NCBI GenBank assembly: GCA_964016885.1
Contig: OZ024759.1
Coordinates: 20,956,001-21,020,000, forward strand
Source: Eledone cirrhosa
Taxonomy: Eukaryota
Direction: 5' to 3'
DNA: 64,000 nt
Positions 83 through 55,965 of this stretch are shown here, in pieces (position 1 is the stretch's first letter; each line of letters starts with the position of its first letter). The notes below the pieces were generated by a model. It was not told the origin of the DNA and ran no database searches. It saw only the letters and a program-made list of their open reading frames with translations. Position numbers and translations under genes: made by a program.

Positions 83-699
83 CTCTCTATGTATATGTAT
101 GCCTGTGTATTCTAAATAGCCTGTTATGTAGTATTAATCATGTATGTATGTATGTATTAGATATACAATACCTCCCCTTCCACCTATGTTTTTCCTTGTA
201 TGGTATAACGTAACTTATGATTTATAGAGCATGTAATAACTACAATGATATATATACTGGCAATATGTAGAAACATGGCAACCTCTTACATCGGTCGACT
301 ATGCTACATGGACATTACATAATACCTGACGATCTGTGTGTATGTATATGTATATATATATATGTGTGTGTATGTATAAACACGTATATATTTATATATA
401 TATTTATATATATATTTATATATATATTTATATATATTTATATATATATATATATGTATAAACACACTCTTACACACACATATATATATATATATGTGTG
501 TGTGTATAAACACGTATATATATATATGTTATATATATATGTATACACGTGTATATATATGTAATATATATATATAAACACTCACACTCTCACACACACC
601 CACACACACACATATATATATACATGTATATATGTAATATATATATAAACACACTCACACACACACATCTACTTTTATATATATATATATATATATATA

Positions 700-43748: not shown

Positions 43749-44610
43749 GTATATGTATATATATATATATATATAGTGAGTATATGTATATATATATATA
43801 TATAGTGAGTATATGTATATATATATATATAGTGAGTATATGTATGTATGTATATATATATATATATATATATAGTGAGTATATGTATGTATTTATATAT
43901 ATATATAGTGAGTATATGTATATATATATATATATAGTGAGTATATGTATGTATATATATATATAGTGAGTATATGTATATATATATAGTGAGTATATGT
44001 ATATATATAGTGAGTATATGTATATATATAGTGAGTATATGTATATATATAGAGTATATGTATATGTATATATATAGAGTATATGTATATATATATATAT
44101 ATAGTGAGTATATGTATATATATATATATAGTGACCATATGCATATATATATATATATAGTGAGTATATATGTATGTATGTATATATGTGTGTGTATATA
44201 TATATATATATATAGTGAGTGTATGTATATATATATATATATATGTGTGTGTACAGTTGACAGGCTACTTTAATCTCGGGACTCAGTAGACCAGACATAT
44301 ACATTAAAGGACTCAATACGAGGGAAATGGAACGATTAATGTTTTTTTTATATAATTTTTAGTTGTTTTACAGAAGTTCTTTGGTTTCTGATATAACACA
44401 CACACACACACGCACACGCACACGCACACACACACACACACGCACACACACACGCACACACACATACATGCACACACACATACACCCATTGGTGAACCCA
44501 CACATATATATATACCTACATATATATGTATGTATATACGTATATTTATACATATATACATATGTACATGTACATCTTATAAATTCCCATTTTCATTATA
44601 TAAATATATG

Positions 44611-44725
<115 letters not shown>

Positions 44726-44728
44726 ATT

Positions 44729-44800
<72 letters not shown>

Positions 44801-45216
44801 TTTATATATATATATATATATATATACATATATTTATATATATATATATATATATATACATATATTTATATATATATATATATATATATACATATATTTA
44901 TATATATATATATATATACATATATTTATATATATATATATATACATATATTTATATATATATATACATATACATATATTTATATATATATATATATATA
45001 TACATATATTTATATATATATATATATATATATACATATATTTATATATATATATATATATATACATATATTTATATATATATATATATATATACATATA
45101 TTTATATATATATATATATATATACATATATTTATATATATATATATATATATATACATATATTTATATATATATATATATATATACATATATTTATATA
45201 TATATATATATACTTA

Positions 45217-45253
<37 letters not shown>

Positions 45254-45297
45254 CGTAAATAAGAAAATTATAAAATTAACTTACTTACTAAAAAATC

Positions 45298-45380
45298 ACT
45301 TCCAACTAATTAGTTTCTGGAATGGAGTAAATATATTTTCCGAAGAAACTTATAGAAAATCATTCCGTCATCAGGAAAGT
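45298..45380 (-). ncRNA. Type I hammerhead ribozyme, inverted copy
   Basis: Exact reverse complement of 46189-46271. Confidence 0.78.
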
Positions 45381-46188
45381 CTTTTTCCGTATAGGTCTCC
45401 AGGCATAGCGAGGACACTGGAAACTTATTAAAAAAATAATTCAGTGGAATGGAAATAGCGATGCGTGGACTGGATTCCAAGCCATTGAAAAAATCACTGC
45501 CTCTACGTCCGTGGCAAATTCAAAAAGAATCAATCACGTGACATCGAGGTCAATCAGTGGAAAGCGAGTGGTTATTAAGACAGCGGCCAGCTTACTACCA
45601 TAGTAGCAGTCATGGCCAAATATTGCTCGACAAATGAATTGGAGATAATTATAAGGAATTTATATCTAGTAACATTTATATACACACAGATGCATATCAA
45701 TGCTAGCAAATATATAGGTTTTGTCTTATTAACAATGTGGTTCAATGCATTTTTTAGTAAGTAAGTTAATTTTATAATTTTCTTATTTACGTCTCTCATA
45801 TTATCGTTCTGCAACCCCATGCATTGAACCACATTGTTAATAAGACAAAACCTATATATTTGCTAGCATTGATATGCATCTGTGTGTATATAAATGTTAC
45901 TAGATATAAATTCCTTATAATTATCTCCAATTCATTTGTCGAGCAATATTTGGCCATGACTGCTACTATGGTAGTAAGCTGGCCGCTGTCTTAATAACCA
46001 CTCGCTTTCCACTGATTGACCTCGATGTCACGTGATTGATTCTTTTTGAATTTGCCACGGACGTAGAGGCAGTGATTTTTTCAATGGCTTGGAATCCAGT
46101 CCACGCATCGCTATTTCCATTCCACTGAATTATTTTTTTAATAAGTTTCCAGTGTCCTCGCTATGCCTGGAGACCTATACGGAAAAAG

Positions 46189-46271
46189 ACTTTCCTGATG
46201 ACGGAATGATTTTCTATAAGTTTCTTCGGAAAATATATTTACTCCATTCCAGAAACTAATTAGTTGGAAGT
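46189..46271 (+). ncRNA. Type I hammerhead ribozyme with extended stem II
   Basis: ACTTTC-CTGATGA-C-GGAATG...CATTCC-A-GAAAC-TAATTA-GTT^GGAAGT. Stem I is ACTTTC/GGAAGT and stem III is the palindrome ACTAATTAGT. Predicted cleavage after 46265. Confidence 0.8.
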
Positions 46272-46436
46272 GATTTTTTAGTAAGTAAGTTAATTTTATA
46301 ATTTTCTTATTTACGTCTCTCATATTATCGTTCTGCAACCCCATGCATTGAACCACATTGTTAATAAGACAAAACCTATATATTTGCTAGCATTGATATG
46401 CATCTGTGTGTATATAAATGTTACTAGATATAAATT

Positions 46437-46473
<37 letters not shown>

Positions 46474-46693
46474 TTTATCTGTGTATATTTATAGTTGTAT
46501 GTGTATATATGCATATATATATGTATATTGTATGTGTATGTATATATGCATATTGTATGTGTATGTATATATATATATATATATATGTATATTGTATGTA
46601 TGTATATTGTATGTATATATATATATGTATATTGAATGTATATATATATTGAATGTATATGTATAGTGTATGTACATATATATATATATATAT

Positions 46694-46745
<52 letters not shown>

Positions 46746-46780
46746 ATATATATATATATATTGTATATATATATATATAT

Positions 46781-46816
<36 letters not shown>

Positions 46817-46874
46817 ATATATATATATATATTGTATATATATATATATATATATATATTGTATATATATATAT

Positions 46875-46905
<31 letters not shown>

Positions 46906-46907
46906 TG

Positions 46908-46938
<31 letters not shown>

Positions 46939-47212
46939 ATAATTATGTTTATGTGTATATGTATATATATACATATATACATACATATATATATATATAT
47001 ATATGTGTATGTATATATATAACTATCGTTAACGTTCATATAGTAAATGGGCCTCTCACCACCCCTATCCACCCACTGTCCTCTCACCACCCCTATCCAC
47101 CTACTGTCCCCTATTAAACCCTAAAAACTTTGTCAAGAGATAATGATCAAATGTAAAACCAACAGACCGACAGATAGAACTATATCTTCTACGTATATTA
47201 CTAGTTTACCGC

Positions 47213-49480
47213 CATTACACTGCACTGAACTACACCCTACACTGCACTGAACTACACCCTACACTGCACTGAACTACACCCTACACTACACTGAACTACA
47301 GCCTACACTGCACTGAACTACACCCTACACTACACTGAACTACACCCTACACTACACTGAACTACAGCCTACACTGCACTGAACTATAGCCTACACTGCA
47401 CTGAACTACAGCCCACTGCACTGAACTACACCCTACACTGCACTGAACTACACCCTACACTACACTGAACTACAGCCTACACTGCACTGAACTACACCCT
47501 ACACTGCACTGAACTACACCCTACACTGCACTGAACTACACCCTACACTGCACTGAACTACACCCTACACTGCACTGAACTACAGCCTACACTGCACTGA
47601 ACTACAGCCTACACTGCACTGAACTACACCCTACACTGCACTGAACTACACCCTACACTACACTGAACTACAGCCTACACTGCACTGAACTACAGCCTAC
47701 ACTGCACTGAACTACAGCCTACACTGCACTGAACTACAGCCTACACTGCACTGAACTACAGCCTACACTGCACTGAACTACACCCTACACTGCACTCAAC
47801 TACACCCTACACTGCACTGAACTACAGCCTACACTGCACTGAACTACACCCTACACTGCACTGAACTACAGCCTGCACTGAACTACAGCCTACACTGCAC
47901 TGAACTACAGCCTACACTGCACTGAACTACAGCCTACACTGCACTGAACTACACCCTACACTGCACTGAACTACACCCTACACTGCACTGAACTACAGCC
48001 TACACTACACTGAACTACACCCTACACTGCACTGAACTACACCCTACACTGCACTGAACTACACCCTACACTGCACTGAACTACAGCCTACACTGCACTG
48101 AACTACACCCTACACTGCACTGAACTACACCCTACACTGCACTGAACTACAGCCTACACTGCACTGAACTACACCCTACACTACACTGAACTACACCCTA
48201 CACTGCACTGAACTACACCCTACACTGCACTGAACTACACCCTACACTGCACTGAACTACACCCTACGCTACACTGAACTACAGCCTACACTGCACTGAA
48301 CTACACCCTACACTGCACTGATCTACACCCTACACTGCACTGAACTACAGCCTACACTGCACTGAACTACACCCTACACTGCACTGAACTACAGCCTACA
48401 CTGCACTGAACTACAGCCTACACTGCACTGAACTACAGCCTACACTGCACTGAACTACAGCCTACACTGCACTGAACTACAGCCTACACTGCACTGAACT
48501 ACACCCTACACTGCACTGAACTACACCCTACACTGCACTGAACTACAGCCTACACTGCACTGAACTACACCCTACACTGCACTGAACTACAGCCTGCACT
48601 GAACTACAGCCTACACTGCACTGAACTACAGCCTACACTGCACTGAACTACAGCCTACACTGCACTGAACTACAGCCTACACTGCACTGAACTACACCCT
48701 ACACTGCACTGAACTACAGCCTACACTACACTGAACTACAGCCTACACTGCACTGAACTACAGCCTACACTGCACTGAACTACAGCCTACACTGCACTGA
48801 ACTACAGCCTACACTGCACTGAACTACACCCTACACTGCACTGAACTACAGCCTACACTGCACTGAACTACACCCTACACTACACTGAACTACAGCCTAC
48901 ACTGCACTGAACTACACCCTACACTACACTGAACTACAGCCTACACTGCACTGAACTACAGCCTACACTGCACTGAACTACACCCTACACTACACTGAAC
49001 TACACCCTACACTACACTGAACTACAGCCTACACTGCACTGATCTACACCCTACACTACACTGAACTACACCCTACACTGCACTGAACTACAGCCTACAC
49101 TGCACTGAACTACACCCTACACTACACTGAACTACACCCTACACTACACTGAACTACACCCTACACTACACTGAACTACACCCTACACTGCACTGATCTA
49201 CACCCTACACTACACTGAACTACAGCCTACACTGCACTGATCTACACCCTACACTACACTGAACTACAGCCATTACACTGCACTGAATTACACCCTACAC
49301 TACACTGAACTACAGCCTACACTACACTGAACTACAGCCATTACACTGCACTGAACTACAGCCATTACACTGCACTGAACTATAGCCTACACTGCACTGA
49401 ACTACAGCCTATACTACACTGAACTACAGCCATTACACCACACTGTAGCCACTACACTACACTACACTACACTGAACTGC
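47213..49480. repeat. 22-bp minisatellite TGCACTGAACTACA(C/G)CCTACAC, ~100 units
   Basis: Period 22 (47221, 47243, ...) with two main polymorphic positions. It decays into 5-bp CTACA-type repeats at the right edge. Confidence 0.97.
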
Positions 49481-49731
49481 AGCCTACACTACACCACAGC
49501 CACCACAATACATTTTACCCACTACACTACAGTGTAGTCATTACGCCACAGTCATTACAGTGTAGTCGTTACACCTCACCACAGAACACTGCAATGTAAC
49601 CACATTATACCACAACACAATGTACTGCAGCCCCTACAGTACATTACACAATAGCCACCACACCACACCTCATTATAGCCACACTACACAGTTGCCTCAC
49701 CACGCACACACTATATATATATATATATCGC

Positions 49732-49830
49732 ATCACCAGTCTGAGGAGCAGATCGATACTTGAATCAGGTCCATATTTCCTATGCGTCACCTTGATCCAA
49801 TCCTCTGCGAAACGCGCGTAACAGGTCGAT
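49732..49830 (+). ncRNA. Type I hammerhead ribozyme in a (TA)n-flanked ~155-bp insert
   Basis: ATCACCAGT-CTGAGGA-GCAGA...TCTGC-GAAAC-GCGC-GTA^ACAGGTCGAT. Stem III is the palindrome ACGCGCGT and stem I has one A-A mismatch. Confidence 0.82.
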
Positions 49831-49882
49831 ACGCAATAAATATTTTTCATATGTAAACGAACGTTCCTCATTTTTTATTTTG

Positions 49883-50015
<133 letters not shown>

Positions 50016-50267
50016 GACGACCGGCTAAAGTGGAAGATGCTAGATGGTTGGTCGTCCTCGGGTCTATGATTTTCAGCCCCATGGATTTTATCTGTTACAT
50101 TCATTTATTATATTTCGAATACCTGATGATATCACCGGATTCATACCTAACTAGTCCAGCGTTGCTATTTATGAAGATTCGAGCTTTCTGTTTGTCAGCT
50201 AAAAGATGTCTCTACTTTCTTTATATGAAGAGCGAACACAGAGACAGATAGCATATATATATATATA

Positions 50268-50507
50268 ATAAAATAACAGGAGGCGGGACTGGTGTAAATC
50301 CTTGAGAGGTTTATAATAAACCTTTCAAGGATTTACACAAATCCAGCCTCCTGTTATTTTATCATAATATTTAACTCCGTACTCGCACCACCAACTACAC
50401 AAACGAAGACGAGTGAGCTGCTTTACGTTGAGTACTCTCCATATTATTACATCAAGATTGACCATACGGAATTGACCAGCTCTATCCAGTGGTGAACCTT
50501 CAAACCT
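50268..50507 (+). mobile_element. Hairpin (50268-50362) plus 145-bp tail between (TA)n and (TAGA)n
   Basis: ATAAAATAACAGGAGGC...TGTAAATCCTTGA / TCAAGGATTTACA...GCCTCCTGTTATTTTAT. The tail shares AACTACA and GTGAGCTG with the tail at 15952-16064. Confidence 0.7.
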
Positions 50508-50676
50508 ATAGATAGATAGATAGGAGGAAATGGTAGTTTACTTGAAGCATTGCGTAGTGAGGTATAAACGTTTGAAGTTAGAAGGCCAGTACAATGCAGG
50601 TATGGATATAGAATATAAATACAAATGCAAAAGATATCGCTGACAATTAGTCTTTTACCTTAAATTTATTTGAATA

Positions 50677-50713
50677 TCCTGATATTTCGAGATAATATCT
50701 CTTCTTCAGAGGG
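50677..50713 (-). ncRNA. Minimal hammerhead ribozyme (Penelope-type)
   Basis: CCCT-CTGAAGA-A-GAGAT(ATT)ATCTC-GAAAT-ATC^AGGA, with a short stem I. Confidence 0.65.
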
Positions 50714-50772
50714 AAGTAAAGGAGTTAATCCAGTGATCTAATTAGCTTACCAAGTCATGCTGACAGGAAAGA

Positions 50773-50829
<57 letters not shown>

Positions 50830-54577: not shown

Positions 54578-55172
54578 CAAAATTTGTTTTATAAATAGTG
54601 ACATACCCGATAAACCAAACCTTATCGGTTCAGGTTCCATTGGATTATTACTATATATATATATATATATTTGTATTTATATATATATATATATATAGTA
54701 ATAATAATAATACTAGTAATAATAATAAATGTGAAGACTAAAATCCAAAGAGGGCTCGATACGGATAAATATATATCAAATATATAAGAACCCTAGAGCA
54801 AATAACAGAGCAATCCAACATTTGTTGATTCTTAAAGGAGCATAAATTAATTATGGTGCCTTTCCTGGACCCTATAAGTAAAATGTTATGCTAATTTAAT
54901 TTTATGTATTCAAATGAAGTTCAGATATTAAAAAAAAATAAGCTTTAAAAGAATTTATTATATGAAATAAAGAAAAAATAAAATATAGACGTTTGAAAAA
55001 GTGTGTGTGTGTGTGTGGCCCTTGGTGGCTAATATGTGGTTAATATACCGTAGTATTTAAAGCGTTAACTGAATGAGCACTCAATGCTGGTGAACACAAT
55101 GTAGAAATATATTCTTTCCTAAATAGATAAACAGTGACTTAGACGTTTCATATTAATCGCTTTATCTGGCTT

Positions 55173-55965
55173 AAGTTTCAGTTTGGTTACCTCATCAGGC
55201 CAGTTTTCTACTGAGAAAATAACTGAAGCTAATACTGATATCTAATTTAGACCAGACGAGCGACAGTGACCTCGAAGTTTCAGTTTGGTTACCTCATCAG
55301 GCCAGTTTTCTACTGAGAAAATAACTGTAGCTAATACTGATATCTAATTTAGACTAGACAAGCGACAGTGACCTCGAAGTTTCAGTTTGGTTACCTCATC
55401 AGGCCAGTTTTCTACTGAGAAAATAACTGAAGCTAATACTGACATCTAATTTAGACTAGACGAGCGACAGTGACCTCGAAGTTTCAGTTTGGTTACCTCA
55501 TCAGGCCAGTTTTCTACTGAGAAAATAACTGTAGCTAATACTGATATCTAATTTAGACTAGACAAGCGACAGTGACCTCGAAGTTTCAGTTTGGTTACCT
55601 CATCAGGCCAGTTTTCTACTGAGAAAATAACTGAAGCTAATACTGACATCTAATTTAGACTAGACGAGCGACAGTGACCTCGAAGTTTCAGTTTGGTTAC
55701 CTCATCAGGCCAGTTTTCTACTGAGAAAATAACTGAAGCTAATACTGACATCTAATTTAGACTAGACGAGCGACAGTGACCTCGAAGTTTCAGTTTGGTT
55801 ACCTCATCAGGCCAGTTTTCTACTGAGAAAATAACTGAAGCTAATACTGATATCTAATTTAGACTAGACGAGCGACAGTGACCTCGAAGTTTCAGTTTGG
55901 TTACATCATCAGTAAGTAATGAATTTTCTACTTAGAAAATAACTGAAGCTAATACTGATATCTTA
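55173..55965 (-). repeat. 102-bp tandem repeat (~7.7 units), each unit carrying a hammerhead core
   Basis: AAGTTTCAG starts at 55173, 55275, 55377, ... 55887. The minus strand reads CTGGC-CTGATGA-GGT(AACCAA)ACT-GAAAC-TTCGAG-GTC across the unit junction. Confidence 0.88.

Follow-up and report, generated by a model that had tools for sequence, protein, structure and literature searches.

Two fixed, paired 3' ends in a non-coding hammerhead repeat family of Eledone cirrhosa, and their probable origin by Penelope-type priming

The locus described here raises the question of how a short repeat with a predicted hammerhead ribozyme comes to be inserted as two head-to-head arms, and whether self-cleavage of its RNA sets the point at which the copies begin. 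It lies in a 64,000-nt stretch of Eledone cirrhosa DNA (the window; contig OZ024759.1, positions 20,956,001 to 21,020,000), to which all window positions refer. A sequence-only reading of the window had proposed a ribozyme-processed RNA template of Penelope type, with a 5' end defined by cleavage. Across the family, the pairing of 3' ends is a stronger pattern than the excess of 5' ends at the predicted cut, and it is on this pairing that the account below is built.

Layout of the window copy and its predicted hammerhead

The window copy (45244-46443) consists of two arms of a 524-bp unit, 507 and 695 bp long, arranged head-to-head with their 5' ends facing each other (Table 1). The inverted layout described in the sequence-only reading is exact, the left arm (45244-45750) being a 100% reverse complement of the 507 nt at 45819-46325. 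The right arm (45749-46443; 695 nt, period 524) starts at the equivalent of 46273, 7 nt past the GUU of the predicted cleavage site (GTT at 46263-46265), and lacks the 7 nt corresponding to 46266-46272. It continues through a full unit and the hammerhead into a further stretch, given as about 170 nt in that reading and measured here as 171 nt at 100% identity. With +1 assigned to 46266, the base following the predicted cut, the right arm runs from +8 to +178 and the left arm from +78 to +60. Since the arms share 2 nt (45749-45750) where a 6-nt palindrome ends, the actual start of the right arm lies between +8 and +10. The outer ends of both arms pass into (TA)n: the left arm can be followed to +56 and then shares ATAT with the target (hence "+60"), while the right arm can be followed to +174 and then shares TATA (hence "+178"). 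A long 22-bp minisatellite lies immediately to the right (47066-48100).

The unit has a GC content of 35% and no ORF, its longest ATG frames being 17 aa (sense) and 68 aa (antisense). No LTR layout is seen, and the ends directly adjoin (TA)n. Judged by its sequence, the element is non-coding and non-autonomous. The unit had been called larger than typical retrozyme monomers, which holds against the 150-450 bp given in PMC7229834 and does not hold against the 51-972 bp reported by Li 2026. Each arm of the window copy contains one complete hammerhead, one short of the two units by which Li 2026 describes active copies.

Table 1. Features of the window copy and its flanks (window positions)
Feature	Position	Strand	Basis
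Left flank, (TA)n-type microsatellite, self-complementary; inferred target	44597..45247	.	sequence
Left arm, +78 via predicted hammerhead to +56; 3' end is the short site	45248..45750	-	alignment
Left-arm copy of predicted hammerhead, identical to right-arm copy	45298..45380	-	mirror of 46189-46271
Head-to-head junction, 2-nt overlap at end of 6-nt palindrome	45745..45750	.	sequence
Right arm, +8 via full 524-bp unit to +174; 3' end is the long site	45749..46439	+	alignment
Predicted type I hammerhead	46189..46271	+	12-subfamily alignment; pair counts; 190 distinct variants surveyed
Predicted distal hairpin in 36-nt stem II extension	46215..46237	+	6/9 pairs change both sides; 78.5% of cells paired
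Terminal redundancy, 171 bp	46273..46443	+	100% identical to 45749-45919
Predicted hairpin +16..+49, then unpaired putative short priming site (+56/+60)	46281..46325	+	circular fold
118-bp "tail" between both fixed 3' ends, with predicted long hairpin +114..+167 inside	46322..46439	+	fold and alignment
Right flank, (TA)n-type microsatellite; inferred target	46440..47019	.	sequence

In the predicted hammerhead, stem I pairs 46189-46194 with 46266-46271, and the core consists of CTGATGA (46195-46201) and GAAA (46252-46255). Stem II (46203-46208/46245-46250) has a C.A mismatch at its base, and stem III (46255-46257/46262-46264) is a palindromic 3-bp stem, with the cut predicted after 46265. Across 12 subfamily representatives (picked for diversity, down to 72% identity), 89% of the stem cells are paired and 9 of 24 pairs change on both sides; none of 500 shuffles matches the covariation score, and slid controls drop to 34-47% paired. 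On this comparative evidence the motif noticed in the unit is not due to chance. The stem II insertion, put at about 35 nt in the sequence-only reading, is present as 36 nt between the strands; rather than a mere insertion, it is predicted to be structured, with a covarying distal hairpin. Among 190 distinct variants, in a survey that itself demanded a near match to the motif, the core is intact in 165 (CTGATGA in 149 and CTGACGA in 16) and the 14-mer comprising GAAA, stem III and GUU is exact in 173. An Rfam scan of the whole 64-kb window gave 0 matches at gathering score, single-sequence folding of 46170-46290 left the hammerhead unsupported (z 0.57), and the active fold differs from the predicted minimum, both in the linear region and in the circular fold.

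GUU is a permitted but weak hammerhead cleavage triplet. Because the unit combines this triplet with the C.A mismatch at the base of stem II, which is found in nearly all of the surveyed variants, the predicted hammerhead is expected to be weak.

Fixed 3' ends and spread 5' ends across the family

The window copy belongs to a family of 524/525-bp units with thousands of copies in the 3.0-Gb genome. Exact genome matches number 544 for the 34-mer across the predicted cut and 3753 for the 25-mer at +19..+43, and those joined to TA repeats number 225 for the +178 end and 1319 for the +60 end. Most copies are 525 bp long; because the window copy is without one T, its exact +60 junction pattern occurs at only 5 places, and other rare alleles are present in all of its repeats. 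The insertions are dispersed and span 0.1-3.3 units, with 90 distinct arms exceeding one unit (longest 3.3 units) and tandem core matches spaced 525 bp apart. An older subfamily, 72% identical (L306:3897-4889; L142; L316), keeps the hammerhead stems, and its long end is at the equivalent position; the loop of its first hairpin has been expanded by A/T-rich sequence.

The first genome search favours arms that cover the query start, and the 5'-end statistics were therefore redone on genome-order samples. Sample 1 comprises 94 of the first 100 genome-order places matching the +178 end with TA. Sample 2 comprises places from matches to the +60 end and to the 25-mer (+19..+43), with a few loci common to sample 1, and sample 3, used for counting passes, comprises the first 100 genome-order places of the same 25-mer. 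In sample 1, anchored on +178, 64 of the 94 insertions are two-armed and head-to-head; the tail-to-tail arrangement occurs in 1 case against 147 head-to-head junctions. The 3' ends lead into (TA)n in nearly all arms, in samples not chosen for TA, and TA repeats are also present 5' of the arm in 21 of 30 single arms.

The 3' ends fall at two sites, +60 and +178, each with a 4-nt match to the (TA)n target, and the two sites are used as a pair. Of the 64 two-armed copies anchored on +178, 57 have a partner arm that stops at +60, 2 have one that stops at +178 and 5 have an interrupted partner end, which puts 57 of the 59 canonical partner ends at +60. For insertions anchored on +60, all 12 canonical partner ends are at +178, and 4 more are interrupted (Fisher p 7e-12 for the pairing of +60 with +178). 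The pooled set of 147 distinct junctions contains 112 mixed pairs, 3 of +178/+178, 0 of +60/+60 and 32 with an interrupted end; one of each site is thus used by 112 of the 115 two-armed copies with canonical ends. One +60/+60 pair was found under a lenient rule and was dropped under a stricter one. Each arm type is also found alone, with the same fixed 3' end.

In the predicted circular fold both sites are unpaired, and each lies 7 nt 3' of a hairpin, the one at +114..+167 stopping 7 nt short of the long site. The hairpin before +178 has modest covariation support (4 of 19 pairs change on both sides), and that before the short site is nearly invariant and consequently gives little covariation. 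In contigs of three runs from a single sample, loose ends extend into TA repeats at +60 as well as at +178; this sample may be the assembly's own and is not counted as independent. Among the runs listed, none is on record as RNA, which is evidence neither for nor against expression.

The 151 5' ends of the 94 insertions in sample 1 are spread over the unit at about 0.25% per nt, and 121 arms cross the predicted cut, 29 of them twice. In +1..+7 there is 1 end of the 151 in sample 1, and there are 7 against 2.3 expected in sample 2. In +1..+25 there are 16 against 10.0 expected in sample 1 (p 0.05) and 16 against 7.2 in sample 2 (p 0.003), with 0 against 4.8 expected just upstream of the cut in the latter; pooled over both samples, which have a few loci in common, the excess has a p of ~0.001. 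In sample 1, a scan statistic over all windows of 25 nt does not mark the cut region as exceptional (p 0.35), so the case for the excess rests on the prior choice of site and on the second and third samples. Of the 100 passes in sample 3, 89 continue past the predicted cut and all of stem III, 1 ends in stem III, and 10 end in +1..+18, where ~4 would be expected (p 0.01; one insertion contributes both of its arms to these ten). By hand count, 13 of the 36 best-scoring full-unit copies start at +2..+18, in a tool-ranked and possibly biased sample. Six 5' ends at +26 in sample 2 are probably alignment breaks at a subfamily duplication.

A roughly twofold excess of stops just 3' of the predicted cut is real, and a minority of templates were probably cut at the hammerhead before copying. 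The origin from a ribozyme RNA by Penelope-type insertion, as put forward in the sequence-only reading, gains support from the family, whereas a 5' end set by cleavage does not hold as a rule: 5' ends spread along the unit, which that reading had named as evidence against itself, are largely what the genome-order insertions display, and a cut-defined start is a minority effect only. The right arm of the window copy, at 695 nt, is just within the 702-nt limit for a cut linear dimer and fits a circle equally. Since about half of the stops in its interval are excess, the chances that its start records a cut RNA end are roughly even.

A proposed two-site priming scheme and its alternatives

In 64 young pairs, 394 of 415 diagnostic sites have the same allele in both arms; the corresponding level in shuffles is 64%, and the highest among 500 of them is 75%. 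Consecutive units agree at 566 of 602. As a pattern, this is the agreement that copying of both arms from one template would leave. Later conversion between the arms could account for part of the shared alleles, and homogeneous linear multimers from homogeneous source arrays would yield an equal allele pattern. The overlaps at the junctions are mostly 0-8 nt. In four insertions (L063, L354, L143 and L147) both arms end at an almost equal unit position, which in L063 places both arm ends inside the 12-nt stem III palindrome; palindromes may aid the joining of both cDNAs.

Paired ends are also found in two other families of the genome. A 310-bp hammerhead family, unrelated to the 524-bp unit, is very young and is represented in the window at 19641-21698 by head-to-head arms of 3.8 and 2.9 units. 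Its loci were picked by best score, which favours long, young ones; among the 21 examined, an end at +139 is paired with an end at +159..172 in 18 of 18 two-armed loci, and the tail is ~26-33 bp. Its arms reach 14.5 units, several loci have private variants in all units of both arms, and 153 crossings of the cut include 0 indels within 12 nt. In one 310-bp insertion (L239, G000:C3:282881500-282889000) both arms change to a second variant near their 5' ends, which suggests a late switch to another template molecule.

The other family is an autonomous Penelope-like element (L286:1730-7260, minus strand) encoding a 784-aa frame with RVT_1 and GIY-YIG and an upstream 455-aa frame, and with a CxxC linker as described for Neptune/Nematis (Craig 2021, PMC8557442). 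It is young and abundant, with many identical intact copies, a ~690-bp pseudo-LTR and an age similar to that of the 524-bp family. Its short end is paired with the end carrying a 38-bp tail in 14 of 14 classifiable loci (50 examined). This element, the one autonomous family compared, shares no sequence with the 524-bp and 310-bp units, and a search for a hammerhead core in it found none; the hairpin-before-site geometry is not clear in the 310-bp unit or in the autonomous element. At L038:630-3160, an arm from the short end of the autonomous element switches into unit +104..+48 and is joined to a +5..+178 arm of the 524-bp family. This chimera was later tandemly duplicated as a 2.55-kb block, with at least 5 repeats on C4, and counts as one event. 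With a single chimeric event, no shared sequence and no hammerhead core found, the autonomous element is at most a candidate for the partner of the 524-bp family.

Elsewhere in the window, a tandem array at 55160-55960 (minus strand) is built of 102-bp units that each contain a hammerhead core. Short inserts flanked by (TA)n tracts at 49730-49884, 50014-50253, 50267-50778 and 56700-56830 have hammerhead-like cores or small inverted arms and are probably further families of like kind. CTGANGA...GAAA motifs occur at 16237, 17573, 24463, 24772, 29888, 54569, 62139 and 62346, some of them in related pairs.

For the 524-bp family we consider it probable that a Penelope-like RT-GIY-YIG enzyme cut (TA)n and primed both broken DNA ends at different fixed sites on one, probably circular, RNA of the non-coding hammerhead repeat. 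In the first step, tandem copies would be transcribed, cut by the weak hammerhead and partly circularised. The enzyme would then nick both strands of (TA)n, the sequence into which the arms lead. One DNA end would prime at +60 and the other at +178, each through the 4-nt target match, at a site that is predicted to be unpaired and lies 7 nt 3' of a hairpin. Synthesis from both ends would give two cDNAs with the same alleles, about nine of ten passes crossing the cut cleanly and stops falling at a near-constant rate, as seen in the counts above. The cDNA ends would be joined via 0-8 nt of microhomology, or one cDNA would be lost to leave a single arm. In a minority of cases the template would already have been cut, producing the twofold 5'-end excess at +2..+25, to which the window right arm may belong.

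Twin priming could also operate on linear, partly cleaved multimers with a ribozyme-cut 5' end, circles being minor. The excess of ends at +1..+25 and their absence just upstream in sample 2 would fit such templates, as would the best-scoring copies starting at +2..+18 (subject to their possible bias), the window arm just below the dimer limit and the multimeric and linear RNAs that axolotl retrozymes give besides circles (PMC7229834); most arms of the 524-bp family are short enough for a linear dimer. We nevertheless regard this as unlikely, given the 89 of 100 passes that cross the cut, the 29 of 151 arms that do so twice and the scarcity of ends in +1..+7 in sample 1. The cut-monomer limit is exceeded by 68 of 94 and 52 of 57 arms, and the cut-dimer limit by 18 of 94 and 9 of 57. 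Linear templates by themselves could not make an array longer, yet the longest arms have 3.3 units here and 14.5 units in the 310-bp family, there with a private variant in every unit. Copying of cut linear monomers, with the enzyme jumping from the 5' end of a monomer to a 3' end, whether of that monomer or of a different one, is far less probable. The cut is followed by an enrichment of stops, switches between templates are seen (L038, L239), and private indels in +1..+25 number 14 against 5.5 expected. These indels, however, are located within or next to a T run and a short tandem repeat, another T run of similar kind has 14 against 4.3 expected, and none of the indels in +1..+25 removes +1..+4. 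Of 224 passes over the predicted cut, 223 are clean (1 indel in 521..+4), as are all 153 in the 310-bp family.

In fold-back self-priming (Arkhipova 2013), proposed for head-to-head Penelope copies (PMC3846280), a single cDNA or antisense RNA folds and is copied back into an inverted arm. This would account for the shared alleles, and in the window copy the left arm is nested in the right and the junction lies within a palindrome. Fold-back needs nesting, yet 40 of 87 arm pairs are not nested, arm lengths are uncorrelated (rho 0.18, p 0.18) and each arm type also occurs alone with its fixed end, which makes this route very unlikely, if marginally less so than the jumping of monomers. The least credible of the alternatives is a single priming site followed by endonuclease resolution that trims or adds the tail at the second end, or a DNA-level duplication. 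The one-ended tail has been attributed to endonuclease-mediated resolution (Craig 2021, PMC8557442), and such a process would likewise yield one end of each kind. Against it, both ends match (TA)n by 4 nt in predicted unpaired RNA after hairpins, both join fresh (TA)n, and in the in vitro assays of Frangieh 2024 (PMC11167929), made with a Poseidon protein, the two boundaries of the tail map as RT start sites.

A more specific form of the two-site priming scheme is offered tentatively, with confidence falling a little short of even. In it, one Penelope-type RT-endonuclease dimer would bind one circular ribozyme RNA at two sites, 118 nt apart and each marked by a hairpin, and would allot one of them to each broken DNA end. 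The inverted repeats of Penelope-like elements and their one-ended tail would then follow from a single rule, and the small pile of 5' ends after GUU would have been left in the genome by cleavage in vivo, the hammerhead being deliberately weak.

Relation to retrozymes, Penelope-like elements and LINE-1

Animal non-LTR retrozymes were defined by Cervera 2020 (Cervera and de la Pena, PMC7229834), where copying of their circles by Penelope-like RTs was proposed; Li 2026 (Li, Clavereau and Pollet, bioRxiv 10.64898/2026.07.22.740005) gives the range of unit sizes cited above and links retrozymes to pLTRs. In both accounts, the cycle in which a circle is copied by a Penelope-like RT is still a hypothesis. 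As described there, retrozymes resemble the 524-bp element in having a non-coding head-to-tail unit of a few hundred bp, one type I hammerhead and low GC (35% here, <50% in the class). The palindromic short stem III is a further likeness, and the mismatch at the base of stem II has its precedent in the slow axolotl hammerhead HHR_Amex2 of Cervera 2020 (U.U there, C.A in the 524-bp unit). A circular template and a Penelope-like helper are proposed for both, the circle of the 524-bp family being suggested by its insertion patterns only. Unlike the long arrays of those descriptions, the 524-bp family forms short dispersed head-to-head pairs, and it has fixed paired 3' ends; the GUU triplet, the 36-nt stem II extension with its distal hairpin and the lack of an Rfam match also set the unit apart from the retrozymes described.

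The insertions resemble those of GIY-YIG Penelope-like elements as described in PMC8557442, PMC3846280 and PMC4209133, where 5'-truncated partial tandems have an inverted truncated copy on their 5' side, a one-ended tail is common and (TA)n serves as target. Cervera 2014 (PMC4209133) describes the traits of Penelope-like element hammerheads and mentions pairs on opposite strands, 100-700 bp apart. One of these traits, an extra base between A9 and the G10.1-C11.1 pair, has its like in the 524-bp unit and is a further precedent for the C.A mismatch at the base of stem II. The origin of the tandem and inverted insertions and tails of Penelope-like elements has been named as unsolved (Craig 2021, PMC8557442), and the one-ended tail is already known qualitatively. 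Unlike these elements, the 524-bp unit has no ORF, and it has no sequence in common with the one autonomous family compared; its tail is 118 bp, against 30-40 bp, and is one-ended in 112 of 115 copies. The tails of the 310-bp family and of the autonomous element, by comparison, are of ordinary length for such elements.

In LINE-1 twin priming, two target ends prime one RNA, and the result is a head-to-head inversion joined by microhomology. The second primer acts at variable internal places, and the two pieces do not overlap. In the 524-bp family, by contrast, the two sites do not vary, and the same bases are copied into each arm. In the literature searched, which covered few subscription papers and in which older reviews may hold a precedent, no proposal of paired two-site priming was found for Penelope-like elements or retrozymes.

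A biochemical parallel is a Poseidon protein studied in vitro (PMC11167929). It nicks both target strands and extends each of them, with synthesis beginning at two internal sites that mark the boundaries of the tail; cleavage by the hammerhead is dispensable, and the protein is predicted to form a dimer. The 524-bp family likewise has two sites bounding a tail and an AT-rich target. For Poseidon_Ac, Frangieh 2024 (PMC11167929) reports an equal start site for top and bottom strands and no match between start site and target, in an assay that did not pair ends within one molecule; the equal use of start sites by the two strands speaks against the scheme proposed here. The 524-bp family, in contrast, has a different site for each end in almost every insertion, and a 4-nt match to (TA)n at each. 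The family offers a countable rule for Penelope-like insertion, with one arm per site in 112 of 115 copies, both arms following one template and the sites 118 nt apart, enough for them to be mutated separately. With the published Poseidon system, twin priming, use of the circle and the role of the hammerhead are directly testable. Taken by itself, the 524-bp element is unexceptional within an abundant class, and it is best read as a variant of that known class, an animal non-LTR retrozyme with Penelope-type insertion and an unusually long tail.
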